Shown piece after piece: positions 1,650-21,000 of a DNA stretch of 51,165 nt. Both the position numbers and the translations under genes were made by a program. Source of the stretch: Stramenopiles sp. TOSAG23-2. Lineage: Eukaryota. Positions within the stretch are counted from its first letter, which is position 1. Each line of letters starts with the position of its first letter. The stretch covers positions 1 through 51,165 of the forward strand of contig LT649267.1 of the NCBI GenBank assembly GCA_900128395.1, in the 5' to 3' direction. A model generated the notes under the pieces. It had not been told where the DNA came from. It saw nothing but the letters and a program-made list of their open reading frames with translations, and searched no databases.

Positions 1650-1842
1650 TTAATTTTTTCGTGGCAGGGGTCCTTGCCGTCTGTGCGGCAGCTGGAAATT
1701 TAAATTAAAATTTACTAAATCTAAAATAAAATCTTAGTAAAATCTAACCGGACGACATGATGTTAGTACTATTTTTCCTATAGTAAATCCAGTAAAGCGT
1801 ACTATTATATCCAAATATCAAAAACAAGTTTAAAAGTTGTTA

Positions 1843-1851
1843 TACCAGGTA
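1843..1851. promoter_or_regulatory. Recurrent intergenic palindrome TACCWGGTA, copy 1 of 4
   Basis: TACCAGGTA; other copies at 4265, 11627 and 51067, all non-coding. Function inferred. Confidence 0.35.
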
Positions 1852-2068
1852 TTGCACGACATGAAAAGAGAAAATAAATTCAAAGGAATCAATGTGCCAA
1901 TATTGTTGGGGAAAAAAAAAAAGGCATATATCATCTAGAATATTAACAATTTAATAAAAAATTAATAAATAATATTATAGTATAATACCCAGTACGTACG
2001 CGTAGCATTTTGATTGTTTGTGGTTAAAACTCTCGGTACTAAATTATAAAAAGTTTGTCACACACTCA

Positions 2069-3799
2069 TCACTTCGATTTTTTACCTTCATTATTATCAT
2101 CATCATCATCATCTTCATACATGGACATAAATTGAGATTGTAATTTTCTTGAAGTAGTATCTTCAATTTCTTCAATTTCACCGACACTTAATTCTCTGCT
2201 CATGAGCTCATCTAAATCATCTACAGATGATATCATACTTTTATCGTTTAAAACACCTGATATAGAACGTATTAAATTAGCACTTTTATCACTTGCATTT
2301 GTGCTTACAATATTATCAATTTGATCGGTAATAGTAGTAGAATTTCGTCGAGGCGAATTTACAATACCATCAACTAAATCACTTGATTTAGTACGTCGAA
2401 CATCCCGTACAACAGCTCTTGCTGGGCTACTACTAGTATCGCCATTACCACCTTTTATACTATCACTATTTTTTCCTGCTATTTTTTTACCCGGTTTCTT
2501 TCTTTTACTATTTATTTTTCTTTTTAATTGATTTCTTAATCCTCTTATTTGACTAGTTTGCTTTAACAATTTTGTCTCTAATTTACCTACATATAATGAT
2601 CGTGATTTTAAATCTTTTTCAAGTTGTTTTTTTTGACTAACAACCCATTTCATACGTCGAACGGTTCCCATTAACCATCGTTGTTGCCTTGCAATCAAAT
2701 CACGTCCTTCTTTAATAGAAGTTTTTTGCTTTGTATGCATTTCAGAATTCTCATGTTGTAATTTATCAAGTTGACGACGTAAACGTAAATTTTCAGCCGT
2801 CGTTGCTTTCAATTGTGCTAACCTTGATTCTAATTCATTGGTATGTATTGGATGTGCCCTAATAACATCGTATCCCATATCACCACGTTTTAAATTTTTC
2901 AAATTCTGTTTCAAATTATTTTGACTATCATACGATGCTGGTGGCATAGATTCTGCCATTAATCGCGGCGTTGCAACTTTATCCCAAAATTCTTTTTCAT
3001 GAAATGATCGTTTTGACTCCTCTGTTGGTGTTGATAAATATTCCGTAACAAGTGCACGTAAAGATCCAGCATTAGATTCCAATATACGTATACGTTCCTC
3101 TGCAGCTTCTGCTCTGTTTTCTAGCTCTTCTTTTTCTGCTAATACATCAACATTGCGTTCAACAACTTGTTCCAATTGTTGCGCTAAAGCATCAATTTGT
3201 TTGGAATATTTTAAAGTTTTCTTCTCTTGTAAATTTATCTCACGATTACGAGTATTCAATAATTGCCTGTTTTCAGATCTCAAATTTTTAACTTGATGCT
3301 CTAAAATTCGTAAACGTTGTTTCATTTCTACAGTTGCCATATCAAAAGTGCCAGTAGATGTCAATATACGAGTGTCATTATCGATTTCATCTTCCTCTTT
3401 TTGCTGTCGCTCTTGTTCTTTGGCTATTGCCTCTGACATGCTACTTGTATCATTTCCAGTCACAGAGATTGTAGTTGAATTATTATTGATGTTACTAATA
3501 CTATTTTCATTATCACTCATAACTTCACTACTATTAATATTATTATCATTTGCTTGTTTTTCAATACTACTATTATCATTATTATTATTATTAATGCTAT
3601 TCACTACAGCTGTTGTTGCAGAAGAGGATTGTATTATTTTTTTCTTCACCGATCGGTTCATTTTCTTCGTGGATGATTTATTGGAAGACGACTTACGATT
3701 TGAAGATTTTGAAGAGGACGTAGATGATTTCTTTCTATTACTATTATTTTTCTTATTGGATGTTGTGTTTTTTTTTGATTTTTTCGTATGTGACGACAT
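2069..3799 (-). CDS. Coiled-coil protein of unknown function (576 aa)
   Basis: Long ORF; S/K/N-rich N-terminus followed by long E/Q/K/L/R-rich helical segments. Confidence 0.8.
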   Translation of the reverse strand: MSSHTKKSKKNTTSNKKNNSNRKKSSTSSSKSSNRKSSSNKSSTKKMNRSVKKKIIQSSSATTAVVNSINNNNNDNSSIEKQANDNNINSSEVMSDNENSISNINNNSTTISVTGNDTSSMSEAIAKEQERQQKEEDEIDNDTRILTSTGTFDMATVEMKQRLRILEHQVKNLRSENRQLLNTRNREINLQEKKTLKYSKQIDALAQQLEQVVERNVDVLAEKEELENRAEAAEERIRILESNAGSLRALVTEYLSTPTEESKRSFHEKEFWDKVATPRLMAESMPPASYDSQNNLKQNLKNLKRGDMGYDVIRAHPIHTNELESRLAQLKATTAENLRLRRQLDKLQHENSEMHTKQKTSIKEGRDLIARQQRWLMGTVRRMKWVVSQKKQLEKDLKSRSLYVGKLETKLLKQTSQIRGLRNQLKRKINSKRKKPGKKIAGKNSDSIKGGNGDTSSSPARAVVRDVRRTKSSDLVDGIVNSPRRNSTTITDQIDNIVSTNASDKSANLIRSISGVLNDKSMISSVDDLDELMSRELSVGEIEEIEDTTSRKLQSQFMSMYEDDDDDDNNEGKKSK

Positions 3800-3979
3800 G
3801 ATTATTCACAATAATTAATAAATAAATGAAGGATATACAATTATACTTGTTATTATATATTATAAATGATAATTAATAACGATACACGAACCAAGAAAAA
3901 TGGGAAAAACGTATATAATTATTCTAAATATTGAATGCTTTAAAAACTACTTTTAATTACAAATTGTCTATCTATACCG

Positions 3980-4022
3980 ATCTATCTATCTATCTATCTA
4001 TCTATCTATATATATATATATA
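3980..4022. repeat. Compound microsatellite (ATCT)n(AT)n
   Basis: Seen directly in the sequence. Confidence 0.9.
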
Positions 4023-4164
4023 AAATATATATACCTATCGTATAAAATATAATAATAATATAGCAGGTAAATAGTACTAACGTTCATGATCGCGTGGTGT
4101 TGGTGGAGGCCGAAAATCGCACTGTATGTGTGTGGCGTTGGAGGTGAAAAACGAAAAGAAACCC

Positions 4165-4220
4165 GATCTGCAGGATCTCCAGATCTGCACATCTCCAGAT
4201 CTCCAGATCTCCCAGATCTC
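4165..4220. repeat. Imperfect CCAGATCT short-period repeat in a divergent intergenic region
   Basis: GATCTGCAGGATCTCCAGATCTGCACATCTCCAGATCTCCAGATCTCCCAGATCTC, lying between head-to-head genes. Confidence 0.8.
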
Positions 4221-4264
4221 TGCAAGTGCCTCTGGATCCTCGTACAGTATTATAATGTATATAA

Positions 4265-4273
4265 TACCTGGTA
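4265..4273. promoter_or_regulatory. Recurrent intergenic palindrome TACCWGGTA, copy 2 of 4
   Basis: TACCTGGTA in a divergent promoter region. Function inferred. Confidence 0.35.
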
Positions 4274-4459
4274 GATCTTGACAGCGGACAGCCGGACAGC
4301 TCTAATTGCTGGAAATCTCAGCTGGGAAGACCTGGAAGACTCTGCACTTGCTTATGCTGTGGCTTGCCAGAGTATTATACAGCAGTATTAATATTGGTAT
4401 AGTACATACACGTTATTTTTTTTTTATTTATTATAGAGTTATCGACATTAAAGATGGTG

Positions 4460-4461
<2 letters not shown>

Positions 4462-4496
<35 letters not shown>
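4462..4496 (+). repeat. Poly(T) tract, ~35 nt
   Basis: Seen directly, ~120 bp upstream of the LRR gene ATG. Confidence 0.9.
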
Positions 4497-4499
<3 letters not shown>

Positions 4500-4616
4500 G
4501 TAGATAACTCTATAGACTATATAAAATTTAAATATATTTATGAAATATATAGTAAAACATATAAACATTTTACGAACAATTATAACAAAAAGAGAAAAGA
4601 AAAAAGAAAAGGCAAG

Positions 4617-7600
4617 ATGAAGCAGAGTAATACTATGAAAGTGTCACCGGTGAAAAAGCGGAACCCACCGTATACAACTAGGAATTATGCGTTTAAAAAA
4701 ACTGTAAATATCAATTTATCGCCTCTGAAAAAATCTGCTAAAAAATTTAAAAAGTCTGTTCAAACATCACCTGTAAAAAGCAATCGTCGTCGTTTTGGTT
4801 CCAATAATCCATCTGTCTCTCCTGTCAAACGTGTAAAATTCAATCCTAAACCTGGTGAAGTAGAAACCAAAAGAGGTACTCTTCGCGATGTTCTGTTCGA
4901 CTCAAACTTCAACCCACGTACGTCTCCTGTGAAAAAAAGTAGTGATAAATACGATACATCATATTTAAAAAGACCACAGTTAACACTATCACAACAAAAT
5001 ATATTAAAAATGACTGGTATACAAGCTAGGGGAGATGATGGCACTGGGGTTGACTATAGTAACATAAACAATCAAAATAGATTTAATAAGCATTATCATG
5101 TCGATGCAGATTATTATACTATGTTGCATTCGCTTGGTGATCATCGAAAAGCTCGGGAAGCTCTGTTAAATGAAGAAAAATATGCTAGTAATTACAGAGC
5201 TAGAAGTTTTGAAGAAGCTTTAGATAATTATACTGCGAAAGCACAAGCAAGAATAGATAAACTTACTGCTAAATCTTACGGTCCATTGCCAAATAGACAA
5301 ATTTTACCAATGTCACGATTTACAGTAGAGCATGTACCTCCTATCCCAGCTCCACCTCCAACAAAACATGTTCAAACATTGTTTTATAATAATGCCATGC
5401 CAGATCCATCCAATCCAAATTTAATTCCTGTACATAATCCAGAAAACGAAATGAAACATAAAAAATTAACAAAATATGAAGAGAAAGACTTACAAATAAG
5501 TGACCCAGAACGGCGCGCAATGCGAAAGTCCTTCGTAGGCCCTTTTAAAGGTGAAATAAACGCAACTAGTGGCAAAATAGACTACCTCACCCCAACTGTT
5601 GGTAGTAGTACATTAAATGTACAAATACCAAATGCATGGATAAGAAAATTAGTTTATACGAACAACCGAATTACAACTTTTGACCCAATAAAATTAAGAA
5701 TAAAGCTTCCGTATTTACAACAATTATCATTAGGACAAAATGCATTGCGGGAGTTGCCGCAAGATATTGGCAAATTAGCTAGCTTACGAATATTAGATTT
5801 GCATTCAAATATGCTTGTAACGATGCCAGGCACTTTGACTAAGTTATGCCGTTTAGAAGTGCTAGATGTTTCATTAAATGAATTAGTATCTTTGCCAGCA
5901 AATTTTGGTGGATTGAGAAAATTGAGCAAGTTAAACATTACGGGAAACAAACTAACACAATTACCCGATGGAATTAAGCATTGTTTAAATTTAAAGGATA
6001 TTAAGGCCAATGGAAATAAAATTTTAGTAATTGGACAATTTCCAGTTCCAAAATTAAAAGAAGATAAGCGGGATTACAACGAGGAGGATTTATGGGAAGA
6101 ACTAGATGCAACTCAATTTAAGAAAGGTAAGGCATATAAAAATTTAAGAACACATAAATTGCAACGTGCTGCACCATCGAAATCCATTATTACAAGACAC
6201 CACCAGTTACTTGGTGGAATTGAAGTTAGTCTAGAGGCATTGTTGCCACCGAAACGAAAAAAACGTGACATGTTGGATTTTTCAGCTCTGAAACAGGAAG
6301 GCGCGCCAATCAGCAAATTAATGGATGCGCTTGCTATGGTTAATGAAAGCATATGGAGTTGTGCGGTAAATGTAGAATCGGGGAATGTTTATTATAAAAA
6401 TTGTATCAATGACACTACGACTTACATTATGCCAAAAGAATTAGATTTCTTGCCAAATATGCGTCACATACTTGTTATGAAATTTAACTTCAATGGCCTT
6501 CGCTCAATACCAGAAAGTATTGGAGCACTTCAAAATTTAAAACATTTAGAATTAGATTCAAATCGAATACGGGATATTCCCTTGACACTGTGCGAATTAT
6601 TTTCCTTGGAGGTTTTATCGATGGGAAACAATATGATAGAACGTGTACCACTTCAATTGGGTAGATTAAGCAGGTTAAAAAAATTACGGCTACAATTCAA
6701 TGCAATAAACTTTTTACCAGGATCAATTGGGCGCTTGGCAGGATTGGAAATATTATGGGTCGGCCATAATAGAATCAAAACGCTCCCAAGAACATTCGGT
6801 AGATTATATGGTTTGAAAGATTTGCAATTATTTGACAATCCAATGGAAAAGCCTCCTATGTGGGTTATTGAAGCTGGCAAAGATCATGTAATACAATATT
6901 GTAGACAACGTTTAATTGAAAAAGAACAAGGTTTACCACCACGTGTTGAGCTTGCTAGAATTGGTGTCAACAAAGAGGTCATCGTTCCTGTTCCACGGTT
7001 GGAAATGGAAATTGCGATTAAATGTGAAAATGCCATTCGAAGTGGAAAGTTGTTTTTGAACTGGTTAGAATTACAAGATTTCCCTGAAAGTATATATGAA
7101 AATGCTACGAAAATAAGTGAAATTCGTTTCGTAGGAAATTGCTTAGGAAGAATGAGCGAGCGTATTGAACTATTTAAAAACTTACGAATCGCATATTTAA
7201 GTGCGAACAAGATAGAGTCAATACCAAATGTTTTTGGAAGCTGCAAACATTTAGAAGAACTTTACTTGTCTGAGAATTTAATTTCAGAGATACCAAATAC
7301 TATCTGTCGTTTGCCAAAGCTACGTATTCTAAATTTTGCTCACAATCGCTTGAAATCCGTACCGAAAAGATTGAAGACAATGCGAAAATTAGAGATTTTA
7401 AATTTAAATTCAAATGCTATAAAAGCGTTACCAGATGGGATGGAAAGTATGAAAAGTTTAATACGCTTAAGTGTTGGATCAAACAAAATTAAGCACTTAC
7501 CTAGAAATTTCGGCTTGATACCACAACTTACTTTTATCAATTTGAATTCAAATTTATTACGTAGAATTCCAGATTCCTTTGCTAGTTTCCAACATTTAAA

Positions 7601-10247
7601 AGAATTAAGACTTGCGAGCAATCGTTTAGTTGCTTTGCCTAAAGAAATCGGTCGCGATGTCGATGTCGAGGGTATGTATGGAAATGCAGGAGGAACCACT
7701 GGAGATGGCACCGTTGTTGTTGTCGGAAAGGAAGGAGAACAAAAAGCTACAATGCAGGACGAGCTGACAAATAAAATGGACCAAGCATTAGATGATTTGC
7801 ATGATAAAATGGAGGAAAAGAAAGCCATGTTGAAAAAAGCTGCCACCAAAAAAGCAAAAAAATTGAAAAAACAGCTAGTAAGGTACATGAAACATATTAC
7901 AAGAGAACCTCAAACAGAAAGTGAGCGAAACAGTATACGCGGTAAAGCAGTTTTACTCGGAAAGAAAATGTTTAAACAATTACAAGAAAATGACAACTTT
8001 AAGGACGCAATGGAACGTACAGCATTATTACAATCGCAAATGCAAGCAAAATATGCTGAAACCAAAATTGCTCAGATTAGAGCTCGGCGCAAGCGACATA
8101 AAATGCGAAATAAAAAATATAAATCCAAGCCAGGAATTATTAAAGGAACATTGAATCTAAAGGTCAGCAAGAAGGGATACTTAAAGGAAAACTTACAATT
8201 GTACGACACTAAAGAAGGGGTCATGCAACTATTACGAAGAGAGATAAGAAATGCAAAATACCCAAGCAGTGAAGAGAGTGAAGATGAGGAGGCAGAATGG
8301 GAAAAGAAACAAAAAGAGCTTGCAGATAGGCCATTTTCTCCAAATTCTGTTTTATCGGACGATTCTTCAGCAAACGAAGGTGGATGGAGAAGACGGAAAA
8401 AGAAGGCGAAGGAAAAAAAATTAGATACAAGAGGAGTGTTAGAATACAAGGCATCTCCACTGGCGAGCAAATTGGAAGTCTTATGGTTAAGTGGCAATGC
8501 TCTTATTGCCTTGCCGGATTCATTTGGCCATTTCAAACAGATTAAATTACTGACATTGGAATTAAACCCTATTATTTCTCCTCCTCGGACTGTAAGCAAA
8601 AATGGCGCTGATATTTTAGAATTATATTTCAAAGTGAAAAGTCGCAGGTTCCAAAAGTTGGTACATTGCGTGAATAAGCTGGGCTTAAAATTTAATTTCA
8701 AGCGATGCACGCCTGTTGCTGAAGGTTTTTGGAATGTTGAAGACCAAGGCTTTATTACCAACCAAGATTTAGAAACGTTTGAGACTCAAATCAATTCATA
8801 TTTAAATGCCGAATTGTATTTGTTTCGATTTACACCGACAAAAATGATAAAAGATATGATAGTTCTACGCGCAGATCGCGAACAAGCACATTATAAGCTC
8901 GTATTAGGAAGATTCTTAAAATTACTATGGATGGTTGAGAATGAAAAATCAAGAAATTTTCCTTTTTTAACAGAAAAAATTTTCGTGAAAAATGTTACAC
9001 GACCGTGGGGAGAGGAAGGTGAAGAGGTAGATTGCTTTGCCATAGATTTGAATTATGTTTTTGAACCAGTTGCTGAAAATGAATACAGCATCATCGATAT
9101 ATTTAAGAATAGGCCAAAAATAAGTGTTGGAGATCAATATTTTAACTATACAAGCACGATAGGCGAAATTGCCGATGCATCGGTTTCTTTTAATAGACCA
9201 TATGGAAACGTAGCTAAAGTTGACGATATAGCAGATTTCGAAGGTGAATGGCCACCAAGTAGTAGCGATGAGGAAGACGAAGCAAATGATGGGGATACTG
9301 AGACAAATGGAGAAGATGGGACGCCGAAGAAGAAAAAGAAAAAAAAGAAGAAGAAAAAGAAGAAAAAGAAACGAAGGAAACCAGATGAAAAACCGCCACC
9401 TGCTAAAAAAAAGGCATTTGTCATTCAGCAGTATTTATACAATGTGGAGGAAGCCAAGAGAAGATTGAAAGAACGCGAGGGCATTGAAAGGCGTTACCAA
9501 CTCAAACTTGATAGATTTGATGATTATGCCATTACTAAATATGGTAAAAATCGTTTAGGCAAGAAACAACGTTTAATGCGTGGTAGTGTATCTGATCAAG
9601 TGGGTGAAGAAAAACGGAAACTAGGAATCTTGGAGGAAGAAAAAGCTCAGAAAAAAACAACTTTAGACGCTATTCAAAATCGCAAAGATCTTTTTGACCA
9701 AGGGAAAGAATTTAAATTTCATAATTTTAGAGATGCCGATCAAGCAGAAACGGAAGTCTACAAAGCAACGCGAGAAGTTGAGAAAGTACAAAAACGGATA
9801 AATAAAAAGAAACTTGATGTCAAAGAAAAGAAAAAATTATATCAAAAAAAGACTGCAGAATGGAAAGCTGCAGCACGTGCTTTTTTCACTGATATGATTT
9901 TTAAACAAGTGAAACTTAAAGTTTATGAACGGCACAGGCGTCGGGCAAGGCATAGAGGAGTAAGAAGACTATGGGATGGTCGAAATGGCGCAGATTACTT
10001 GGCTTGGTTGCAAGCAAATGGACCGTTACATGATGAAAAATCATACTCAAGCCCAGAAGATTCTAGTGGCTATGATATCGGTTTGGATAGCGACGAAGAG
10101 CGAGAACGAGCAAAAGATGCTGCAGCTACTGCGGCACGTATTGCAAAAGAAAGAGAATTTGTTAGGAATCAAGTTGCTATGTTGCAAGGTGTAGAACCAG
10201 AGGAAGTTACAGAAGCAGATATTGATGAAATGATGGAAAATATGTAA
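4617..10247 (+). CDS. Large leucine-rich repeat protein (1876 aa) with several LRR blocks, degenerate WW-like inserts and a coiled-coil C-terminus
   Basis: Many LxxLxLxxNxLxxLP repeats (e.g. LRILDLHSNMLVTMP, LKHLELDSNRIRDIP); LRR caps (LFDNPMEKPP, LELNPIISPP); WW-like IWSCAVNVESGNVYYKNCINDTTTYIMP. Confidence 0.92.
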   Translation: MKQSNTMKVSPVKKRNPPYTTRNYAFKKTVNINLSPLKKSAKKFKKSVQTSPVKSNRRRFGSNNPSVSPVKRVKFNPKPGEVETKRGTLRDVLFDSNFNPRTSPVKKSSDKYDTSYLKRPQLTLSQQNILKMTGIQARGDDGTGVDYSNINNQNRFNKHYHVDADYYTMLHSLGDHRKAREALLNEEKYASNYRARSFEEALDNYTAKAQARIDKLTAKSYGPLPNRQILPMSRFTVEHVPPIPAPPPTKHVQTLFYNNAMPDPSNPNLIPVHNPENEMKHKKLTKYEEKDLQISDPERRAMRKSFVGPFKGEINATSGKIDYLTPTVGSSTLNVQIPNAWIRKLVYTNNRITTFDPIKLRIKLPYLQQLSLGQNALRELPQDIGKLASLRILDLHSNMLVTMPGTLTKLCRLEVLDVSLNELVSLPANFGGLRKLSKLNITGNKLTQLPDGIKHCLNLKDIKANGNKILVIGQFPVPKLKEDKRDYNEEDLWEELDATQFKKGKAYKNLRTHKLQRAAPSKSIITRHHQLLGGIEVSLEALLPPKRKKRDMLDFSALKQEGAPISKLMDALAMVNESIWSCAVNVESGNVYYKNCINDTTTYIMPKELDFLPNMRHILVMKFNFNGLRSIPESIGALQNLKHLELDSNRIRDIPLTLCELFSLEVLSMGNNMIERVPLQLGRLSRLKKLRLQFNAINFLPGSIGRLAGLEILWVGHNRIKTLPRTFGRLYGLKDLQLFDNPMEKPPMWVIEAGKDHVIQYCRQRLIEKEQGLPPRVELARIGVNKEVIVPVPRLEMEIAIKCENAIRSGKLFLNWLELQDFPESIYENATKISEIRFVGNCLGRMSERIELFKNLRIAYLSANKIESIPNVFGSCKHLEELYLSENLISEIPNTICRLPKLRILNFAHNRLKSVPKRLKTMRKLEILNLNSNAIKALPDGMESMKSLIRLSVGSNKIKHLPRNFGLIPQLTFINLNSNLLRRIPDSFASFQHLKELRLASNRLVALPKEIGRDVDVEGMYGNAGGTTGDGTVVVVGKEGEQKATMQDELTNKMDQALDDLHDKMEEKKAMLKKAATKKAKKLKKQLVRYMKHITREPQTESERNSIRGKAVLLGKKMFKQLQENDNFKDAMERTALLQSQMQAKYAETKIAQIRARRKRHKMRNKKYKSKPGIIKGTLNLKVSKKGYLKENLQLYDTKEGVMQLLRREIRNAKYPSSEESEDEEAEWEKKQKELADRPFSPNSVLSDDSSANEGGWRRRKKKAKEKKLDTRGVLEYKASPLASKLEVLWLSGNALIALPDSFGHFKQIKLLTLELNPIISPPRTVSKNGADILELYFKVKSRRFQKLVHCVNKLGLKFNFKRCTPVAEGFWNVEDQGFITNQDLETFETQINSYLNAELYLFRFTPTKMIKDMIVLRADREQAHYKLVLGRFLKLLWMVENEKSRNFPFLTEKIFVKNVTRPWGEEGEEVDCFAIDLNYVFEPVAENEYSIIDIFKNRPKISVGDQYFNYTSTIGEIADASVSFNRPYGNVAKVDDIADFEGEWPPSSSDEEDEANDGDTETNGEDGTPKKKKKKKKKKKKKKKRRKPDEKPPPAKKKAFVIQQYLYNVEEAKRRLKEREGIERRYQLKLDRFDDYAITKYGKNRLGKKQRLMRGSVSDQVGEEKRKLGILEEEKAQKKTTLDAIQNRKDLFDQGKEFKFHNFRDADQAETEVYKATREVEKVQKRINKKKLDVKEKKKLYQKKTAEWKAAARAFFTDMIFKQVKLKVYERHRRRARHRGVRRLWDGRNGADYLAWLQANGPLHDEKSYSSPEDSSGYDIGLDSDEERERAKDAAATAARIAKEREFVRNQVAMLQGVEPEEVTEADIDEMMENM

Positions 10248-10589
10248 AAATAATAATAAAAAAAATTTTTAGTAATAATATTTTAATAAATTTTATACTT
10301 GAATGGAAAATTAGAATACTATCCGCATATTAATTTTATATGTGCACATCATCTATTTATACTGTATGGCATACTGTATATTAATATTTAACAAAGCACA
10401 AAAACAAATTTTGCATATATATATATATATATATATACATTACATATTTTAAACTAATAATTTTTGTCATACAAGTATCGAAAATGAAAGTCTTTCGAAA
10501 AGTATAAATAACTCAAGCTGCAACAACATTAAATTTTATTTATATAACAAATACAGTAACAGTATAAATCCACTCTAGATTCAAAAATA

Positions 10590-11507
10590 ATGTCTTCCAT
10601 TACCGCAAAAAAGAAAAGAACCACCAAACCGAAGACTTTTTCCTCTCAATCAAAATGCAATTTTTATCCACTTTTAAATACAGATGGTACACCATCTTGG
10701 CCAACAAACCATTTAAAGAAATTTAATAAAGAATCAAAATCGTCCAATAATTGTAGCAAAAAAGTAGCAGTTCTAGTTCAGACTGGTGCATATTCACCTA
10801 TTCATTTGGGCCATGTTCAAGTTATGGAAAAGGCAAAAATCACGTTGGAAACTTATGGCTGGAATGTTCTTGGTGGTTGGTTGTCACCAAGTCACGATTA
10901 TTATGTTGGACCAAAAGCAAGACAATTTAAGACACCCTTTGTAAATGCAGAGCATAGAGTAAAAATGGTAGAGTTAGCTACAAGTGAATATGATTGGTTA
11001 GCAGTAGGTACATGGGAAGCTCGGCGTGAATCCAGTTGGCCGGATTTTCCAATAGTATGTCGTAATTTATCAAGTCATTTAAACACATTATTAAGTGATT
11101 TATCATTACCAAATGTGACAGTATTTTATGTATGTGGTTCAGATCATGCATTAAAATGTGGCTTAAAAGGCTGGAAAAACAATGAATTAGGTTTAGTTGT
11201 TGTAGCAAGAAATGGTAAATCAATTAAAAATAAAACAGATCCAGAGAAATATGTATACTGGTGTGAAAGTGATGGCCAATTATCAAGTGCATCATCCACT
11301 AAATTACGACATGCCATTCAAAAAAATAATATAAAAGATTTATCGTTATTAACGAACCCTTCTGTAATTGATTATATGATTGAACATAATTTATATGGTG
11401 CATCATCCATGAGAACAATTGCAACAACAACATCAACGATGATGACGACGAGAACAACAACAACGGATGAGCCATCAACAACAACAACAACTGTTTCCGA
11501 CGTGTAA
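10590..11507 (+). CDS. NMNAT: Nicotinamide/nicotinate mononucleotide adenylyltransferase-like protein (cytidylyltransferase superfamily)
   Basis: GAYSPIHLGH (GxxxPxHxGH), GGWLSPSHDYY, HRVKMVELA, VGTWEA, YVCGSDH and SASSTKLR (ISST-like), in eukaryotic NMNAT order. Confidence 0.88.
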   Translation: MSSITAKKKRTTKPKTFSSQSKCNFYPLLNTDGTPSWPTNHLKKFNKESKSSNNCSKKVAVLVQTGAYSPIHLGHVQVMEKAKITLETYGWNVLGGWLSPSHDYYVGPKARQFKTPFVNAEHRVKMVELATSEYDWLAVGTWEARRESSWPDFPIVCRNLSSHLNTLLSDLSLPNVTVFYVCGSDHALKCGLKGWKNNELGLVVVARNGKSIKNKTDPEKYVYWCESDGQLSSASSTKLRHAIQKNNIKDLSLLTNPSVIDYMIEHNLYGASSMRTIATTTSTMMTTRTTTTDEPSTTTTTVSDV

Positions 11508-11626
11508 ATAAAAAATAAAGACTTTTTTTTTTATAAAAATATAATAAATATTTTTTTCCTTTTTTCAATTTTTTAAGGATACCTTAGGCCGGCTATCCAG
11601 GCTATCAATTTCACTAATTTACTTGG

Positions 11627-11635
11627 TACCAGGTA
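11627..11635. promoter_or_regulatory. Recurrent intergenic palindrome TACCWGGTA, copy 3 of 4
   Basis: TACCAGGTA ~260 bp upstream of the ARH-NRK gene. Function inferred. Confidence 0.35.
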
Positions 11636-11896
11636 TATTATACTTGGAAGGGGAATTAGAATAAGATATAAATACACCCATCGATGTTGTTGGACAGACG
11701 GACGACAGACAGTCTTATATATCGATTTATATCTATATATAAAACTAAATAAGAAATGAAATACACACAGATAGAAAGTTGTAAGTTATATAAATATATA
11801 TATATACTATATTCATTATCATTTAATTGACGTACAAGTATATGATCATCATCATTATAAACTGTAATAAGCCCACGGAAAAAATTAATTTAAATC

Positions 11897-14419
11897 ATGT
11901 ATGTTTGGATCAATGTACCAGAACCAATACCAACTATATTAAATGAGTGTAAATATATGGTCAATCCAACCGTACCTGCTGATAATATTATTGATAACAA
12001 TGTTGAAAAGGACAACGATACAATAATTAACGTTATTTTGAACACATCGTCGTCTTCTATAAATGTAATTTCACAAACATATATTGACAATGCCAAAAAT
12101 ATTTACAAATATGATTTTTCTTCAAAATCAATGGAATCTATTATATTAGATGTTTCACAGATATCAAATACAACTATTACAAATCAACGTGTTAATTTTT
12201 TAGCCAACTTACCTTCTTTGGATTTATTTCAAGGTAGTATTATAGGTGTTGCCGTTGGAGATACAATAGGTCTTGGTGTTGAAGGTTTACCCAGAGATCA
12301 ATGTTTTGATTACGTTTCAAATTTGAGAAATAATTTAAAGAGCATGACATATCCATGGAAAAAAGTACTTGATTATTTTAATAGTAGAGGCAAAGAGGAA
12401 TCGGCAAAAACAATTGAGGAGATTATTGGCAGAAGGTTTACTGTGGGTCAAGTTTCAGATGATACACAATGTAGCCTTGCCTTAATTGAAAGTATTGTTA
12501 ATGCAAATGGTTTTTCCGCACAAGCATTTTCGGATTCATTAGTTAATTTACATATTAATCCAGGCATCGTTGGTCAAGGTGGAACATCAAAAGCAACATT
12601 AGATGAACTTGCGACAAAAAAATTATCTTGGTTAAATGCATGTTTCGCTAGTGGTAATTATGAAGAAATGTATGAAAAAAAAAGTTCAAATGGATCGGTA
12701 ATGCGAGTTGGTGCATTGGGTCTTTGGGGTTGGGCGGATCCTACCTCTGTAACCAATTTAGAAAATGCTGTATTGAGCAGCCATGTAACACATTCACATC
12801 CAGATTGTAAAATTGGCGCAACCATGTTGGTTATCGCAGTTGCCAGTGCAGTACATGCAAGAGCCGTAGGAAAAGATGATCCAGCGGAATTTATCATTAA
12901 AAATCTTGAGATGTTTGACCAGCAAATAGGGCAGGTGTTACGTATGATGAATGATTCAAAAGATTGGGAAGCAGCAGCAAATGTTTTACATCAAGAATTG
13001 CCATTGCCAGATAACCAAAGAAGCGATTTTTACAAAAAGAAAGAAATATGCCCGTACCCACAGCATACTGCAGCTTGGGCAATATATTCTTTTTTATCAA
13101 ATACAAATGATTTTTGGGAAGCAATTTTTTGTTCAATGCAAGTTGGTGGAGATACTGATACGTGCGCTGCTTGTTGTGGTGCAATAGCAGGCGCTTACAG
13201 CGGTTTGGATCTAATTATTAAAGGAAGAGAAGACTCGAAATACGTGTTAAATGCTTTACATGATGAGACACAAATGAAGAAAATTAGTTTTAGTGCATTA
13301 AAATCAGTTGGTGAACAATTACACAATACATGCACACGCCTAACCTTTAACGGTGCTTCTGTTCCATCAAAGCAGGGAGAAAGTTCAAACAAAGAAATTG
13401 CATTGTACATACATAATTCTGGATTGATATCCAATGAAGTTGTAAATTCAAATAAATATCGAATTATAAAAGATGCAAATGACTTTTCAAATTATGAAGA
13501 TGAATGTAAAAGTACTGGAAAATCACCTGTTTTAATCATCGAAAGTGTCAGCGTTTCAAACAATATACTAGGCCCTAATGATATACAAGAATCAATATTA
13601 TTTATACGGAAATGTGTAGATTGGGCAACAGTAATTGTATATGGCAGGGCTACCATCATGAATAATTTAAGTCACCATTCATTTTATCATGATAATTGTC
13701 GCTGTGTTGCATTAACATTACACGATGCATTGGAAGCAGCAGAAAGATTAAGTATGCCATCGCTAAATAGTGTAAACAACACGCAAACTAATAGTATCGG
13801 TGTGCAAGTCATTGGAATAAGTGGTTGTAGCCGTTCTGGAAAATCTACACTGACAAAGAACTTAATTGAAGTATATAAAAATGGTAATAATATTTGGACA
13901 GTAATGGGTGATACATATTTTCGTATGAATTGGTTGAGCGGTGGATATAGAATGTTTCACACTAAATATGATTACAAAAAATATACACTTGGGAAATATA
14001 GGCATGGTCCATGGGATAGCCCAGGTGCGTATGATCATGTAAAACTTTTAAATCAAACAAGAATAATCATAAAAGAAGCTGAAGCAGTATATCGAAATAC
14101 AGGCATAGAACAATATGTTATTATTGAAGGATTTACATTATTTGTCGATCCATTGATATATAATTTGTTTGATACACATCTGTATATTGAATTACAATTT
14201 GCTGACGCACGAAAACGTAGAATGGCAACTACACCATTGCCACCAGTATATTATGATACATTTTTATGGCCAAGACAATTAAAATACCATGACAATACAT
14301 TGCATAAATCAAATTACGACGAACTAATATATTTGGATGGCGCAGATCCAGAAAAAGTTCTTTTAAAAAAAGCAGTTGATGCAATTGGTCAAGGGCAGAA
14401 CAACGGTAGCCGTTTGTGA
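11897..14419 (+). CDS. Fusion protein (840 aa): ADP-ribosylglycohydrolase (ARH/DraG) + unknown alpha/beta domain + nicotinamide riboside kinase-like P-loop domain
   Basis: ARH motifs GVAVGDTIG, SDDTQ, SNGSVMR, SHVTHSHP, GGDTDT..A..GAIAGA (~12221-13215). NRK motifs VIGISGCSRSGKSTL, GDTYF, WDSPGA, IIEGFTLF, RKRR, YYDTFLWP, IYLDG (~13802-14400). Confidence 0.88.
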   Translation: MYVWINVPEPIPTILNECKYMVNPTVPADNIIDNNVEKDNDTIINVILNTSSSSINVISQTYIDNAKNIYKYDFSSKSMESIILDVSQISNTTITNQRVNFLANLPSLDLFQGSIIGVAVGDTIGLGVEGLPRDQCFDYVSNLRNNLKSMTYPWKKVLDYFNSRGKEESAKTIEEIIGRRFTVGQVSDDTQCSLALIESIVNANGFSAQAFSDSLVNLHINPGIVGQGGTSKATLDELATKKLSWLNACFASGNYEEMYEKKSSNGSVMRVGALGLWGWADPTSVTNLENAVLSSHVTHSHPDCKIGATMLVIAVASAVHARAVGKDDPAEFIIKNLEMFDQQIGQVLRMMNDSKDWEAAANVLHQELPLPDNQRSDFYKKKEICPYPQHTAAWAIYSFLSNTNDFWEAIFCSMQVGGDTDTCAACCGAIAGAYSGLDLIIKGREDSKYVLNALHDETQMKKISFSALKSVGEQLHNTCTRLTFNGASVPSKQGESSNKEIALYIHNSGLISNEVVNSNKYRIIKDANDFSNYEDECKSTGKSPVLIIESVSVSNNILGPNDIQESILFIRKCVDWATVIVYGRATIMNNLSHHSFYHDNCRCVALTLHDALEAAERLSMPSLNSVNNTQTNSIGVQVIGISGCSRSGKSTLTKNLIEVYKNGNNIWTVMGDTYFRMNWLSGGYRMFHTKYDYKKYTLGKYRHGPWDSPGAYDHVKLLNQTRIIIKEAEAVYRNTGIEQYVIIEGFTLFVDPLIYNLFDTHLYIELQFADARKRRMATTPLPPVYYDTFLWPRQLKYHDNTLHKSNYDELIYLDGADPEKVLLKKAVDAIGQGQNNGSRL

Positions 14420-15263
14420 TAGATTTGTTTTGGTTCGTGCGCAAAAAAATATGAATTTTAACAAAAAAAAAATATTTTAATATATTTATATAAAAAAACA
14501 TTTTTATGTACGTAATCAATATATAAGATTTGTTTTTTTAGTTTTTTTTTACACCTAACGACACACCTTTCACATATTGAAATGCTTTACTTGGTATACA
14601 TTGTACATATTTCATTTTAAAAACGGTTTGGATAATACACCCCCTGTTACGACTGGTTCGTCATCCATGCAGGCTTATTGTCTCTCCTCCCTTGTTGTTG
14701 TTGTTGTGAATTGCCCCAACTTTGTTGTTGTGGTGGATTGTTACCCCATGATGGTTGACCATTGAGACGAACTAATATATTTGGATGGCGCAGATCCAGA
14801 AAAAGTTCTTTTAAAAAAAGCAGTTGATGCAATTGGTCAAGGGCAGAACAACGGTAGCCGTTTGTGATAGATTTGTTTTGGTTCGTGCGCAAAAAAATAT
14901 GAATTTTAACAAAAAAAAAATATTTTAATATATTTATATAAAAAAACATTTTTATGTACGTAATCAATATATAAGATTTGTTTTTTTAGTTTTTTTTTAC
15001 ACCTAACGACACACCTTTCACATATTGAAATGCTTTACTTGGTATACATTGTACATATTTCATTTTAAAAACGGTTTGGATAATACACCCCCTGTTACGA
15101 CTGGTTCGTCATCCATGCAGGCTTATTGTCTCTCCTCCCTTGTTGTTGTTGTGAATTGCCCCAACTTCGTTGTTGTGGTGGATTGCCCCAACTTTGTTGT
15201 TGTTGTGAATTGCCCCAACTTTGTTGTTGTGGTGGATTGTTACCCCATGATGGTTGACCATTG
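14318..15263. repeat. Tandem duplication of the convergent 3' ends of the ARH-NRK and SPT6 genes (14318-14764 and 14766-15263)
   Basis: Near-identical copies with starts 448 bp apart. They differ in the number of SWGN-coding units (2 vs 4) and in the length of a Q run. Possibly two haplotypes assembled in tandem. Confidence 0.9.
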
Positions 15264-18200
15264 TTACTTTGCTGTTGAAAGCCACCACCACCACCACCAC
15301 CACCACCGTCATTTGTAGATTGATTAAGGTAACGATCATTCCAATCATTTCCACCTTGTGGTGCTCCACCATAGGCATTTCCACCACCATAATTTCCCTG
15401 GTTTCCACCACCATAATTTCCCTGGTTTCCACCACCATAATTTCCCTGGTTTCCACCACCATAATTTCCCTGGTTTCCACCACCATAATTTCCCTGGTTT
15501 CCACTACCATAATTTCCCTGGTTTCCACCGCCGGTATTGTAACCACCAGCAAAAATTTGCTGCTGCTGCTGCTTCATTTTCGCTAACCTTCTGTTTTCCA
15601 GTTTGTCGGCGTGCGCTTTTTTCAAAGCCTCGGTCGCCGCTTTCTTCTTTTTCTCATAATCACCTCTATCCCTTTCCAACGTGCCTTTTTGCATTGCTCT
15701 TTTAAAATAACCGATCATATTTTTCACTTCTGGATATTCTTTTCCAAATAATTTATAACCATCAGGTGTAATACGAAATGGAAGATTTTTGCTGAAACTT
15801 TGCGTATGAATAATTTCAAAGAAACCAGGATGCTTGTTCATTGCGCGTATAATATAATGTTTCCTTTTTGGATTTTCTTTATGACACTCTCGTAAATAAG
15901 ACAAAGCTGAATGCCTATCTCCTTCTTTGTACTTTTCATGTCTTTGTAGCATATTTACATTATCAGATACAGGAACATAGTACCTATCTAAAAGTTCATC
16001 GATTTCACTATATTCCTCATCCCATCCAACCACGACTAGAATCTTTTCTCCAGTGTTAGACGTTTTTTGCTCTATCTCATTATGAGCATAAATATTTTCA
16101 GCAACTTTCCACGTTAATGTTAAAAATCGTTTACCTTTACTACTTGGTCTTAAAATCTTCTCACCGACGGGCTTCTCTTCCAAATATTTTTCAGCTTCAT
16201 CACCTCCTTCAAGATTTTTAAATGCCTCATGTGCAATTTGGCGGCGGATATATCGAGTCTTCCCTTTCTTGCTTTGTGCCTCTTTTAGCTTATCCCTTTC
16301 CTCTTTCAATTCTGTTGGCATCGGTGGAGCTAACAGTTCAATGTTCGTGCCATAGTCTACAATCCCAGCCCAATTCATTTTGATCGTTTCAAACGTATAT
16401 AAAGGATACAATAATGGAGGTTGAAAAGATCCTTTTGCTACAAATTCTCCAAAACCAAAGCGATCATACTTCAACTCCTTTACAATCACTTCAATAATTT
16501 CATCTTCTCTAACTTTATCGTTTAAACCATTTACCCATCCAGATATGCCACATTCTAACCGAACTTTAACTTTATCACCATAACTATCGCCACTACTTTC
16601 AACGCTTACTACTTTTGCATGTAGCTCTTTACCTTGCCTTAATGTTTTTGCCGTCATGCCAGTGTATAGATAAAAATTTTCAAGTGGACTTAATTGCTTA
16701 AATTTTATCTGTCGATTTTCAGGCACACGCCTTTTTAATTCGTCCAAAATATACTCGACGGATTTCTCTGGACAGTAATCCAGTCCTTTGTCAATTTGGA
16801 ATTTATCGGCAGTTTGTTTAGCATTGACTCTCATCAAATTACCCTGATGACGTTTCAACGTTTCGTTATCTTGCCTATCTTGAATCACACCATCAGCATT
16901 TAAAGCTTTGTTAGGATCCAATAACATTGAACGAACAAGGTGAGTCAATTCCACTACACTCATATCTTTTAAATCACCACTTTTTTCACAAGCGGTTGCA
17001 ATAATTAATTTCGTATCATTGTAATCTGCTGGATGAATTCTCGTTACATCTAATGGCTCGGGATATTTCTTTTCGGAATCTCCACCGTAATCAGCTTGGC
17101 GTTCTTGCGTTTGGCTATACGGATCGATGGAACCAATTCGCAAGTAACCAGCAGCGTTGGTATATACATTTGTTTTCAATAGACCACCATTTTCTTCCAA
17201 TAGAAGAGATCTACTTCTTAAATAAATATTAGCATTAAATGCATCTTCTGCCTCGTCGTCATCCTGATATGCTTGATTGCTATTAGCATTAGCATATGTT
17301 CCTGAAGTAGCTTTGGCTAATCTAGGAAGAATTTTTTTCAATGCGATTGCTTTCCGTTCACCAAGACCAGGAACAAATCTCAATGTTTCCCCCCAATGAG
17401 GAGAATCGATTGAACGGTTTAAATCTACTCCAGTAATCGCCGTTGCTTTCAAAAACTCACGCTCTAGGTGAGATACTAAAATTTCTTTAGATACTTCCGA
17501 TTGAAAAGGATGGAGCTGTAACATCAACACCGAGCCACCAGGAGTCTCCGAACAGTTGACGGAGTGCGACCCTCTCTTATTTGCTTGTACTACCCATGGT
17601 TCTTCCCATAATGCAGCATAAAATGTAAGAGGATCGATTGTTAGCCTACCGATTGCAATAGCTGCTATTGCGTTGATGTGGAATTCTTTGATATCATCAC
17701 CGATTGTCTCGCGTTTTGCATACAGCAAAGCAGCCTCATTACTAACTGTCATAACTTTGAAAAAATAATTGTAATCGTATTGAGATGCATTAGGATCTCT
17801 TTCATCGGGTGGGCCAGGTACATTCGCTAATTGGCACATTTTTTGCTCTTGTGCCGCTGTTGATCGTATNTGAGGAGATGCATTAGGATCTCTTTCATCG
17901 GGTGGGCCAGGTACATTCGCTAATTGGCACATTTTTTGCTCTTGTGCCGCTGTTGCATCTGAGACCATTTCAAACATCCTTCGACTATCAAATCCCCCAC
18001 TTGAGCTAACCAAGCATATCCTTGGCAAATGAATGCCAATAAATTCTGCAATCTGGTCTTTCATGTCTTCCCTCGTCATATTTGTCAATTTGGGTAAGAA
18101 CACATGGTCAATGCAATCGCCAAACTCATTCAATGCAACCGCCACATTGTTTTCCCCAGAATCAGAGATATAAAATACAGCACGCCGACCATTACTTTTG

Positions 18201-21000
18201 CTCTCTGCTAGTGGCCTATCATCATATTCACCACCTTGATCATCCATATTGTAACGGGGTACCCTAGCTTTCCGATTTGTATTTGCATGTTCATCTAAGT
18301 TGTGCTGATGAGGTTGTAGCAATGGTTTAGTCATAATTCTATAACCTAGTTCCTTTGCTGCCGTTTTTGCGACAAATTCAATAGCAGCCTTATATGTCTC
18401 GCGTTGCAGTTCTCTAAGAGCCAATTGGATATTTTTTGTAAATGCGACCTTAATTGCAAGGCATCGTGTTCTATTAACAAGGTCATTAATTTGGGTACCG
18501 TTGTTTTTCCATGCATCTGTAATTTGTTCCCCAGCCAACTCCAAATCTGCAAATGTGTCTGTCACCATATAGTCGCAAAGTTGACAATATACTTCTTCTT
18601 TCTCCTCCTCGTTAACGGTGACCAATTTTTTTATGAATCCTTCTCTTGAAGCTCGCTCAATAAGTAGATATGCTTCATAACCACATAATGCTTTAACATC
18701 CGATGGAAAATCATACACCCCCCCAGTTGAATTACTCGTAAAATCACTAAGTTTTTTGCCTTGCACGTATTGAATCGGAATATAATCATGCCCTTTATCG
18801 ATTTCATTAAACATCGGCCAGCCCTTTTTCGTTGGTTCAGTAGATAATACAGCATGTTCTTCCACAAACTTTTTAACGAAAGATCGAAATTGCGGCTCGT
18901 TTTGTATTTCATAGGCTAGACTTTTTTGCAACGCTTTCCAAAGCTCTGCTTCCGCTTTTTCCCCTTTAAAACGACCATTTCCCCAAACACGATGAGCTAC
19001 TTGCATATCAGAATTGGAACTTAATGGCACGTTCACCCTATGCTCTACATTGACATTTTCACCAAACTGAGTCGCTGTTAAACCACCAATTTCTCTTAAT
19101 AGAGGCAACATTCGTGCCTTTAATGCTTTAGCATAATCGTTTTTTCTTCCAGCACCACGTTTCTTTTTACTTTCAGTCGTCATCTCTGGAAACTGGATAC
19201 TAATCCAATTTTGAATATTTCTCAATTTTTCCTCATTAAAATCTTTCACTTCCTCGTACTTCTTGTCATCACATTTCTTCAACTCCGCTATGTATTTGTT
19301 CAAGATCTCCTCATTTTCTTTGCGTTGCAACTTTATACTTGCTTCAGAATTTAATTTCATCTGCTTTTCTCTCTCTTCATCTTCTGTTAAATCTATTGCC
19401 ATGGAATTTGCATCTGTAGTAGTAGTAGTTGTTGTTGTTGTTGTTGTAGTAGTAGTAGTAGTAAACGCGAACGCAATCGTGTCCAAGTAGTATCCAAATC
19501 ATATACTCGCCAAAGTCTTTCTTCATCAAGGTACATATGATTTTTGTATAAAAAATGATCACGTCGATAATTCCAAATAAATGGAATTTCATATTGATAT
19601 TCTTTGTCGTATACAAAGCTTAAAACTTTTTGTATACAGCTGATAGTTACACGCTTGGTTTCAGTATTGTCTGCAAGTTCCCCCAGTGAACCTTCTTCTT
19701 TCATTTTGTAAAATATCCAATTTGCCTCCAATGAACGCTCAGTTTTAACTTCATCAACATCATCCCAATCAATATTCGTTCTTCCCTTTCTCAAATTTCT
19801 TATGTAAAGTCTTTCTGGCTTATCCGCTCGTCGTATTCTATCATCAAATTCTGTTACAAAATGTTTCGCACGTTCACTTGGCTCATATTGTTCTCTTAGC
19901 AAGGCTAATTGTTTTGAAATATCATCACGGCCTGTATCCAAATTAAAATCAGTTTGATCTTCATCTATGATTTGTTCCTGATCTACTTTTGGATCGTATA
20001 AACCTTTTGCAGCTTTTATTGCACGTAACCATGGCTCTTCATCCATAATAAAAAGTTCATGCATTAATTTTAAATTCTTCCATTCATCGTCAGTATACTT
20101 GTTAGTTGCATCTTGCTCATCATCTTCTTCACTACTAGAACCACCAGAACTGCTTTCATCATCAGATGCTATAAAATCTTGCATTTCTTCATCAACATTG
20201 CTGCGTTTCTTTTTCTTTTTCTTTTTCTTCTTAGTTTCTTCTTGCACTACGGGTGGTAGGTCCTCACCTCGTTCTGCAGCTTCATTTTCTTTTACCAAAG
20301 CAAGGTCATCTTCATCTGCTTCATATTCCCTTCTTCTTTTCTTTAAACGCTTTAATTGTGGTTCATCATCATCTGAATCAGAATCATCACTATCGTCATC
20401 CGAATCTGAAGCAGAGTCATCTTCCCGTTGTTTTCTTTTTTTTGAAGTTTTATTCCTATTTTCTGACACTATGAAACCTTTCATTTCTTTATAAATCCCA
20501 TCCTTTCCTTTTGCTTCGTCTTCTTCCTCTTCACTATCCCCGTCGTTATCTTCATCTTCATCTGAAGCTTCATCATCAAATAGACTTGATACTTTGGCGC
20601 GTGGTTTAGATTTCGCAACTTCTCCTTCATCATCATCATCATCAGAGTCGGAAGCAGAGTCACCAACATCGTCATGCACATTTTTTTCACTATTGTTATT
20701 ATTATTATTATCACTATCATTATTATTATTATTATTGTTATTATTATTGTTATTATTATTATTACTATCGCCGTCATCATCATCATCATCATCTGATGCA
20801 GAGTCATCAATATCCATGGCGGTTGATTCACTGACTTTTTTCGTATCATCTTGAGCTACTCCCAAATTCCCCCCCCCATCACTTCCCGTAGTCGTCTTTA
20901 CCTCCCCTCCTTCGACAGTATTTGTTGTTTGATCCTTCTCTTGATCATCATCCTTTTCAACGACAGCAGCAGCAGTAGTTTCAGTCGTTGGATTATCCAT
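15095..21000 (-). CDS. SPT6: Transcription elongation factor / histone chaperone SPT6, split into two frames at a microsatellite (~19414-19466)
   Basis: Acidic N-terminus (SLFDDEASDED, MKGFIV), D.PERL, YEIPFIWNYRRDH, YqgF-like region, HhH (LRFVPGLGERKA), PLDVTRIHP, S1 (VRLECGISGWV), tandem SH2 (ILRPSSKG..LTLTWKV), G/N/Q-rich tail. Joins ORFs 19393-21000 and 15095-19486. Confidence 0.93.
15378..15532 (-). repeat. 24-nt coding minisatellite, (GGGNQGNY) x6, in the SPT6 tail
   Basis: TTTCCACCACCATAATTTCCCTGG units on the + strand. Confidence 0.92.
17782..17955. other. 81-bp duplication flanking a single N inside SPT6 (scaffold-join artefact)
   Basis: 17782-17862 equals 17875-17955; the spacer ATCGTATnTGAG copies sequence just left of the first copy. 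Confidence 0.85.
19414..19466 (-). repeat. (CTA)n(CAA)n(CTA)n microsatellite at the SPT6 frame break; candidate 53-nt GT-AG intron
   Basis: Minus strand reads C|GTTTACTACTA...CTACTACAG|AT; removing it joins the two SPT6 frames. Confidence 0.6.

Follow-up and report, generated by a model that had tools for sequence, protein, structure and literature searches.

ADP-ribosylglycohydrolases (ARHs) and nicotinamide riboside kinases (NRKs) are both well studied as stand-alone proteins. Human ARH3 (ADPRHL2/ADPRS; PDB 2g4k, 2foz, 6d36) has about 350–360 residues, and enzymes of the ARH3 type act on Ser-ADP-ribose, poly(ADP-ribose), O-acetyl-ADP-ribose, and alpha-NAD, the alpha form of nicotinamide adenine dinucleotide (NAD). 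Human NRK1 (NMRK1; PDB 2qg6, 2p0e) has 199 residues and, in the excerpts of PMC1994991 that we consulted, is described as phosphorylating the free 5'-OH of a nucleoside. Here we describe a protein that joins an ARH to a kinase of the NRK1 type. It is encoded by contig LT649267.1 of the assembly GCA_900128395.1, from Stramenopiles sp. TOSAG23-2. We analyzed positions 1 to 51,165 of the forward strand, and we refer to this whole stretch as the window. The protein (P0001) has a short N-terminal region, an ARH3-like domain, a receiver-like middle domain, an NRK1-type kinase domain, and a C-terminus that ends in -SRL (Table 1).

Two described systems in bacteria bring similar activities together. 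The kinase domain of NadR belongs to a P-loop family other than that of NRK1. In the excerpts of PMC9503650, bacterial NadR is a nicotinamide/nicotinate mononucleotide adenylyltransferase (NMNAT) domain fused to a nicotinamide riboside (NR) kinase domain, and the window shares this pairing of NR kinase and NMNAT. Unlike NadR, the window has its NMNAT as a separate adjacent gene; its kinase is fused to an ARH instead, and the host is eukaryotic. The second system is that of the salvage loci under NrtR control, and in Streptomyces nrtR adjoins a draG-type ARH gene, according to the excerpted text of PMC2330246.

Table 1. Features of the fusion gene and its surroundings in the window.
Feature	Residues	Nucleotides	Strand	Remarks
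Fusion open reading frame (P0001)	840 plus stop	11897..14419	+	no stop inside; colinear with contigs L001 and L002
N-terminal region	1-105	11897..12211	+	no Pfam match; predicted local distance difference test (pLDDT) < 50 in full-length model
ADP-ribosylglycohydrolase domain, ARH3-like	113-439	12233..13213	+	Pfam PF03747
SDDT motif	S187-D188-D189-T190	12455-12466	+
GGDTDT motif	417-422 (D419-T420-D421-T422)	13145-13162	+
Middle domain, reduced CheY-like, flavodoxin-type alpha/beta	~520-620	13454..13756	+
NRK1-type nucleoside kinase domain	~636-830	13802..14386	+	PDB sequence and profile matches
P-loop	643-651 (G643..T651)	13823-13849	+
Kinase residues	D672; W706-D707; E744; R774-R775
Ser-Arg-Leu tripeptide, candidate peroxisomal targeting signal type 1 (PTS1)		14408..14416	+	protein C-terminus
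Tandem duplication		14313..15060		two 300-nt copies, spacing 448 nt, 99 % identity
NMNAT-like adenylyltransferase (P0002)	305	10590..11507	+	390 bp upstream of the fusion open reading frame, same strand

The fusion and its distribution

An earlier note, made from the letters of the window alone, had proposed that a single uninterrupted open reading frame (ORF) carries both an ARH and an NRK. This proved correct, and the ORF has an in-frame TAA two codons 5' of its ATG. The same reading, over residues 1–840, is present in two other contigs: L001 (100% identity; colinear with the window over 1795–14491) and L002 (99% identity; colinear over 11787–14475). At 90% clustering, the protein belongs to a cluster of 36 members, and 13 of the 15 members listed have the 840-residue architecture. 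In more distant homologs, with about 30% identity, the colinearity extends over every domain. These are P0006 (828 residues), P0007 (918 residues), P0008 (852 residues), and the longer P0048 (1130 residues) and P0196 (1165 residues). L003, a high-GC contig from the P0007 group, has its coding sequence spread across frames, which implies that it has introns. Because the fusion is shared by three contigs and by divergent, intron-bearing homologs, these sequences indicate that it is real.

To examine its distribution, we ran an exhaustive HMMER search of 1.84 billion representative proteins, which gave 1852 matches at E ≤ 0.001. Among the 150 matches listed, two are full-length fusions and one is an N-terminal fragment; of the others, 11 cover the kinase region alone and all the remainder the ARH region alone. 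The earlier note had considered that the fusion might already be common, and these matches speak against it. Our other searches for homologous proteins were not exhaustive: each scored about 8000 candidates, and one aimed at longer proteins missed P0006, P0007, and P0008, which had come up in the first.

The earlier note had also raised a bacterial or viral origin. We searched prokaryotes using one genome per species (185,579 species) and found no fusion in the best 80 of 135 relatives. All of these match residues 48–496 of the query only, with up to 52% identity over the best segment and about 22–35% where most of the domain was matched. Two viral contigs have ARH-only relatives, at 24–27% identity, and no fusion. 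A viral contig of 230 kb (giant-virus-sized), L004, encodes an ARH-only relative at 5001–6059 (24% identity over residues 106–479), with no kinase match reported.

The fusion is rare and so far limited to a handful of eukaryote-like lineages. It is also undescribed within the literature that we searched. Full-text searches found no paper that mentions an ARH together with a nicotinamide riboside kinase. This agrees with the earlier note, which knew of no characterization of this architecture.

The ADP-ribosylglycohydrolase domain

The ARH domain matches PF03747 (ADP_ribosyl_GH) over positions 1–283 of the 287 in the profile, with E = 8.9e-44 and 150.7 bits (the cut-off is 26.2 bits). The full set of metal-ligand motifs is present: E129, which follows a GDxxG motif; SDDT; and GGDTDT. 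We take these residues to be the ligands of a binuclear metal site. The SDDT and GGDTDT of the window's domain align with YTDDT and GGDTDT of ARH3, which has an identical set of acidic and threonine metal-ligand motifs. We aligned the window's ARH domain with 19 of the listed relatives (alignment A3, 20 sequences). There is no variation at D188, D189, D419, or D421, and E129 and T190 are nearly invariant. The Asp and Thr residues of GGDTDT are also invariant among the fusion homologs (alignment A1).

The window's domain is at best about 30% identical to any of the listed relatives. Comparing the profile of A3 to PDB gave matches to ARH3 (5.5e-49, with nearly the whole chain aligned), MJ1187 (2.5e-45), DraG (1.5e-35), Tri1 (3.3e-35), and ARH1 (6e-19). 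Among solved structures, the domain appears to be nearest to ARH3, by a small margin over MJ1187. Unlike human ARH3, it is embedded in an 840-residue protein with a peroxisomal-type C-terminus.

The kinase domain

Human NRK1 is the top match among solved structures, both for the whole protein (2qg6, E = 1.7e-8; phmmer against PDB) and for the kinase domain. We also ran a profile of the kinase domain, built from nine sequences (A2), against PDB. It matched NRK1 with E = 2.2e-32 over chain residues 17–200 of 207. The match to uridine kinase (2.8e-16) was 16 orders of magnitude weaker and covered the N-terminal two thirds alone. Pfam and NCBIfam gave only weak matches in the kinase region, to PRK, udk, and AAA families, and all of these were under the cut-off.

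The kinase domain has G671-D672-T673-Y674-F675, I742-I743-E744-G745-F746, and a YYDTFLWP..LKY segment (785–796), as well as the P-loop. All of the motifs that the earlier note had listed, including SDDT and DTDT, are at the residues it gave. Given the Pfam score of the ARH domain and the match of the kinase to 2qg6, they are not chance look-alikes. The note had equated the Asp of GDTYF and the Glu of IIEGF with the essential acidic residues of NRK1, and the alignment to 2qg6 bears this out: D672 corresponds to Asp36 and E744 to Glu98. D707 corresponds to Asp56, R775 to Arg129, K649 to Lys16, S645 to Thr12 (a change from Thr to Ser), F675 to Phe39, and W706 to Tyr55. D672 is invariant in A1. 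As described in the excerpts of PMC1994991, Asp36 and Glu98 of NRK1 are essential; Asp56 and Arg129 are ligands of the 2'- and 3'-OH of the ribose; Arg132 is a ligand of the gamma-phosphate; and Tyr55, Tyr134, and Phe39 hold the base. NRK1 and the window's kinase have in common the P-loop, the key acidic and ribose-binding residues, Phe39, an aromatic residue at Tyr55 (Trp in the window), and a lid motif like YFDxxxWPxYLxY. In contrast to the stand-alone NRK1, the window's kinase is C-terminal to two other domains.

The earlier note had described both catalytic sites as apparently intact. Judged by sequence, both active sites do look intact, except that two lid residues of NRK1 are not conserved (see below).

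A candidate peroxisomal targeting signal

PTS1 signals have a C-terminal consensus of the type [SAC][KRH][LM]. The protein ends in GSRL followed by the stop codon, and this end is identical in the window, L001, and L002. Endings that fit the consensus are found in 32 of the 199 proteins that we collected. All 32 come either from the fusion family or from the ARH-only proteins closest to it, and they represent six distinct sequences. Within the fusion family, these endings are -SRL (the window's cluster), -ARL (the cluster of P0006), -SRL (P0050), and -AKL (P0173); among the ARH-only relatives, P0054 ends in -SKL and P0103 in -AKL. P0008 (-GKL) and P0063 (-GRL) have near-canonical endings. In the P0007 group, an intron masks the real C-terminus. 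None of the nine NRK-like proteins listed from outside the family has a PTS1-type ending. These observations suggest that the fusion protein is probably peroxisomal.

P0054, P0103, and P0063 are short ARH-only proteins that end straight after the ARH domain, and they are 45–61% identical to residues ~364–480 of the fusion. Their -SKL, -AKL, and -GRL endings suggest that a peroxisome-tagged ARH clade is older than the fusion.

We found no report of a peroxisomal NRK in the literature that we searched. Among the literature matches listed for ARH3 and peroxisomes, no title indicated a paper on a peroxisomal ARH.

The N-terminal region and the middle domain

Alignment A1 shows that only the first ~25 residues of the N-terminal region are conserved (W4, and ..ILNEC.., which aligns with LLEECGW of the homologs); the rest is variable. 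Residues ~440–635 have no family match in Pfam, and the middle domains of P0006, P0007, and P0008 have no Pfam match either. The middle domain ends with a conserved helix (..R602-x-V604......D610-A611..).

The earlier note had suggested an AlphaFold model as a check. A full-length model, from a 5-sequence alignment, had a mean pLDDT of just 45.7, and we did not use it. A model of the homologous segment of L003 (2176–2709), from a 10-row alignment, was more informative (pLDDT 66; predicted template modeling score 0.67) and has a (beta-alpha)5 core. When this model was compared to 48,161 chains with VIA-align, the best match was the receiver domain of FrzS (2gkg; Z 12.1, root-mean-square deviation 2.8, 113 residues). 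At least 31 of the 50 rows, with Z from 10.5 to 12.1, have titles that mention a receiver domain or a response regulator. Foldseek found no match to this model in PDB at E ≤ 0.001, and the matches above that threshold were generic flavodoxin-like proteins.

The middle domain has no conserved phospho-acceptor Asp and no match to Response_reg from Pfam. An Asp follows strand 3 in the group of P0007, P0009, and L003 only, and the acidic pair that would follow strand 1 is absent. The window's protein also lacks two helices of this domain that are seen in the homologs (A1). Because a receiver fold was matched, the phospho-acceptor is not conserved, and the two helices are missing, we describe the middle domain as a degenerate receiver-like fold. 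This label describes a likely fold, based on a medium-confidence model of a relative, and not membership in a family.

Two leads on these regions went no further. The N-terminal domain of P0168, an NRK-like protein of 360 residues, was considered as a homolog of the middle domain and was rejected because BLASTP aligns the kinase parts only. Two protein atlas searches, one with the middle domain and one with the whole protein, yielded nothing that could be used; the top score (0.76) was for a dephospho-CoA kinase cluster and counts as no more than a lead.

The neighboring NMNAT gene and related fusions

The gene upstream of the fusion encodes an NMNAT-like protein, P0002. It matches PF01467 (E = 2.7e-8) and TIGR00482 (E = 3.1e-18; 66.5 bits, under the cut-off of 112), and it carries GAYSPIHLGH and SSTKLR motifs. 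Its best match among solved structures is the NMNAT 9rpk (E = 5.4e-17), with human NMNAT1 next.

In a public model of this locus, P0013 (943 residues), the ~227 N-terminal residues of the NMNAT are spliced directly to residue 10 of the fusion protein, and the kinase is cut short. We rejected it as a probable mis-prediction because it loses the C-terminal SSTKLR of the NMNAT and loses W4, which is conserved in three aligned homologs, and because it requires an intron of ~650 nt in an intron-poor locus.

A profile search with an alignment of the middle and kinase domains identified related fusions among metagenomic proteins. P0199 (641 residues) combines NMNAT, NADAR, and NRK-like domains. P0197 (470 residues) is NRK-like and then NMNAT-like. 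In P0198 (304 residues), the kinase is followed by a weak and partial match to the start of an NMNAT-type domain (E = 0.0063, below the cut-off). P0089 (376 residues) has two NRK-like domains in tandem. BLASTP aligns P0002 to the NMNAT part of P0199 with 33% identity (E = 2e-40). The window's kinase is 30% identical to the kinase of P0197 (BLASTP, E = 6e-23) and matches that of P0199 with E = 2e-12, and all three kinases are in the same group. P0199 differs from the window's protein in having NADAR in place of the ARH. In both P0199 and P0197, the NMNAT is fused instead of adjacent, and neither has a PTS1 ending. The NMNAT fusions of these related kinases support NR or nicotinate riboside as the substrate of the window's kinase. 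By its domain content, P0199 is a second case of an ADP-ribose-type glycohydrolase fold that is joined to NR salvage.

Genomic setting

The window is eukaryotic nuclear DNA, with ~34% GC and long ORFs without introns. Its genes encode Spt6-like, eIF2-gamma, cytosolic carboxypeptidase, FYVE, RING-LON, and leucine-rich-repeat proteins. The host of the fusion is an intron-poor, single-celled marine eukaryote. It is abundant enough to turn up in many marine metagenomes: part of the stretch is present in 20 of the 24 runs listed, from 11 studies. In the metatranscriptome contigs of one sample, 0.49 of the sampled words from 10400–14600 are present, which weakly indicates that some part of this region is transcribed.

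The tandem duplication takes in the final 107 nt of the fusion ORF, together with the 3' end of a convergent Spt6-like gene. It leaves the ORF unaltered and lies 3' of the domain junctions. L001 departs from colinearity with the window at 14491 and L002 at 14475, or ~60–70 nt past the stop codon, and L002 has ~1.1 kb of different sequence beyond that point. This instability of the 3' flank is either strain variation or an assembly problem.

The Spt6-like gene (SH2_2, HHH_7, HTH_44), at 15095–21000 on the – strand, is divided between two ORFs that overlap. The only N of the window, at 17870, lies in this gene. A duplicated stretch of ~25 residues flanks the N, and this resembles an assembly gap. 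The C-terminal tail of the Spt6-like protein has GGNQGNY-type repeats, from 24-nt tandem repeats (15354–15569). Upstream of the NMNAT gene, 4617–10247 (+) encodes a leucine-rich-repeat protein of 1876 residues with long, charged, coiled-coil-like tails. This protein has a run of 15 lysines and then two arginines and a lysine (KKKKKKKKKKKKKKKRRK), and there is a poly-F ORF on the opposite strand that is an artifact. Four ORFs have no Pfam family at E ≤ 1e-5: 33522–40430 (–; 2302 residues), 2069–3799 (–; 576 residues), 45042–46367 (–; 441 residues), and 42704–43840 (+; 378 residues).

Possible functions of the fusion

We lean towards the view that this protein acts in the NAD/ADP-ribose cycle as a bifunctional enzyme, probably in the peroxisome, and that its two activities would be parallel legs of the cycle instead of consecutive steps. 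The hydrolase domain, which would depend on Mg or Mn, would cleave the C1'' bond of ADP-ribose conjugates, and it might reverse the transfer of ADP-ribose or clear O-acetyl-ADP-ribose or alpha-NAD. The kinase domain would convert nicotinamide riboside or nicotinate riboside to nicotinamide mononucleotide (NMN) or nicotinate mononucleotide, and the NMNAT encoded 390 bp upstream would adenylylate these to NAD. One leg would undo the consumption of NAD and the other would rebuild it. What the sequences themselves show are the domain identities, the conservation of catalytic residues, the gene neighborhood, and the recurrence of both the architecture and the C-terminal signal; we infer the substrates, the localization, and any part that the middle domain may play in regulation.

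The earlier note had proposed that the fusion couples de-ADP-ribosylation to nucleoside salvage, or else that the kinase takes a product of the hydrolase as its substrate. Coupling gains support from the upstream NMNAT and from the fusions of related kinases to NMNAT and NADAR, if it is not understood as consecutive steps. The other proposal gains no support. In ADP-ribose, both 5' hydroxyls are engaged in the pyrophosphate. The kinase is unlikely to act on the product of the ARH because ADP-ribose lacks a free 5'-OH, which is the group that NRK1 phosphorylates.

A variety of observations weigh against our favored view. In the kinase, T778 stands at the position of Arg132 in NRK1, and a lid that is shorter by three residues leaves Tyr134 without a counterpart. 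An insertion of ~20 residues, specific to the fusion family, follows the GDTYF strand in the nucleoside-binding region. Because of this insertion and the loss of counterparts for Arg132 and Tyr134, the base specificity may differ from that of NRK1. One branch (P0008, P0048, and P0196) has Asp at the position of Glu98. In the hydrolase, the domain scores 52 bits against the NCBIfam model for DraG (TIGR02662; the cut-off is 337) and 48.7 bits against the model for Tri1 (NF041672; the cut-off is 490). These scores are far under the cut-offs, which leaves the substrate class of the ARH domain unfixed and suggests that it is an ARH3-like family member and not an ortholog of either protein. As for the localization, P0048 and P0196 end in -PEL, after a long tail rich in Ala, Glu, and Pro, which is not a PTS1. 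P0002 ends in ..SDV and has no PTS1, so the synthesis of NAD inside the peroxisome is not explained. Also, the only check on the adjacency of the NMNAT gene came from L001, whose source is the same organism or a nearly identical one: L003 has only 780 nt upstream, which are occupied by the gene's own N-terminal exons.

Another explanation is that the ARH domain is mainly a sensor. It would bind ADP-ribose or an ADP-ribosylated ligand and switch on the NRK via the receiver-like domain, and salvage would follow demand. A signaling-type fold does lie exactly between the two enzymes, and in bacteria, NrtR senses ADP-ribose, controls NAD salvage, and adjoins draG-type ARH genes (excerpts of PMC2330246). 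However, the metal-ligand Asp and Thr residues of the ARH domain are invariant and E129 is nearly so, as expected of an active enzyme. Also, the receiver-like domain is partly deleted in the window's protein and has no conserved phospho-acceptor. We think that a sensor is unlikely. It seems quite unlikely that the kinase acts on another ribonucleoside (uridine, cytidine, or an unknown ribosyl compound), in which case the fusion would not be about NAD salvage. The only Pfam and NCBIfam matches, which are weak ones to PRK and udk below the cut-off, would fit this. The missing counterparts of Arg132 and Tyr134, and the family-specific insertion in the nucleoside-binding region, are also compatible with another substrate. 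On the other hand, the profile matches NRK1 better than the uridine kinases by 16 orders of magnitude, and the match to NRK1 extends over the C-terminal lid, which the uridine kinases do not match. Kinases of the same group are fused to NMNAT (P0197 and P0199; weakly and partially in P0198), and an NMNAT gene adjoins the fusion gene itself.

Finally, the fusion could be an artifact of chimeric assembly or of read-through of two genes. The 3' flank is unstable, with the tandem duplication and with contigs that diverge ~60–70 nt past the stop codon, and the public model P0013 is plainly in error at this locus, though in a different manner. But the domain junctions are within the colinear part of all of the contigs, and the identical architecture is present in three contigs and in 13 of the 15 cluster members listed. 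It is also present in homologs of ~30% identity, one of which is intron-bearing. We give the artifact hardly any credence.

Implications

It is possible, if rather doubtful, that a part of the NAD/ADP-ribose cycle operates inside the peroxisomes of some marine protists, where a PTS1-tagged ARH3-like clade would have captured an NR kinase in several lineages. If so, ADP-ribose conjugates would be implied in the peroxisome, whether from protein ADP-ribosylation or as O-acetyl-ADP-ribose or alpha-NAD, and the NR kinase would trap nicotinamide riboside as NMN within the organelle. It would be the first organelle-resident NRK. According to the excerpts of PMC12178909, peroxisomes are believed to obtain their NAD through carriers, of which the mammalian one is still unidentified. 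Trapping of NR would be an alternative to such carrier-mediated import.

A natural bifunctional enzyme whose kinase lid is unlike that of NRK1 is also of interest for the biosynthesis of NMN. The conserved fusion beside an NMNAT gene, together with the fusion of NMNAT, NADAR, and NRK-like domains, is genomic evidence that the removal of ADP-ribose is coupled with the regeneration of NAD from nicotinamide riboside. A testable claim about where this coupling would take place comes from the conserved peroxisomal signal. The fusion points to a little-known organization of NAD recycling.

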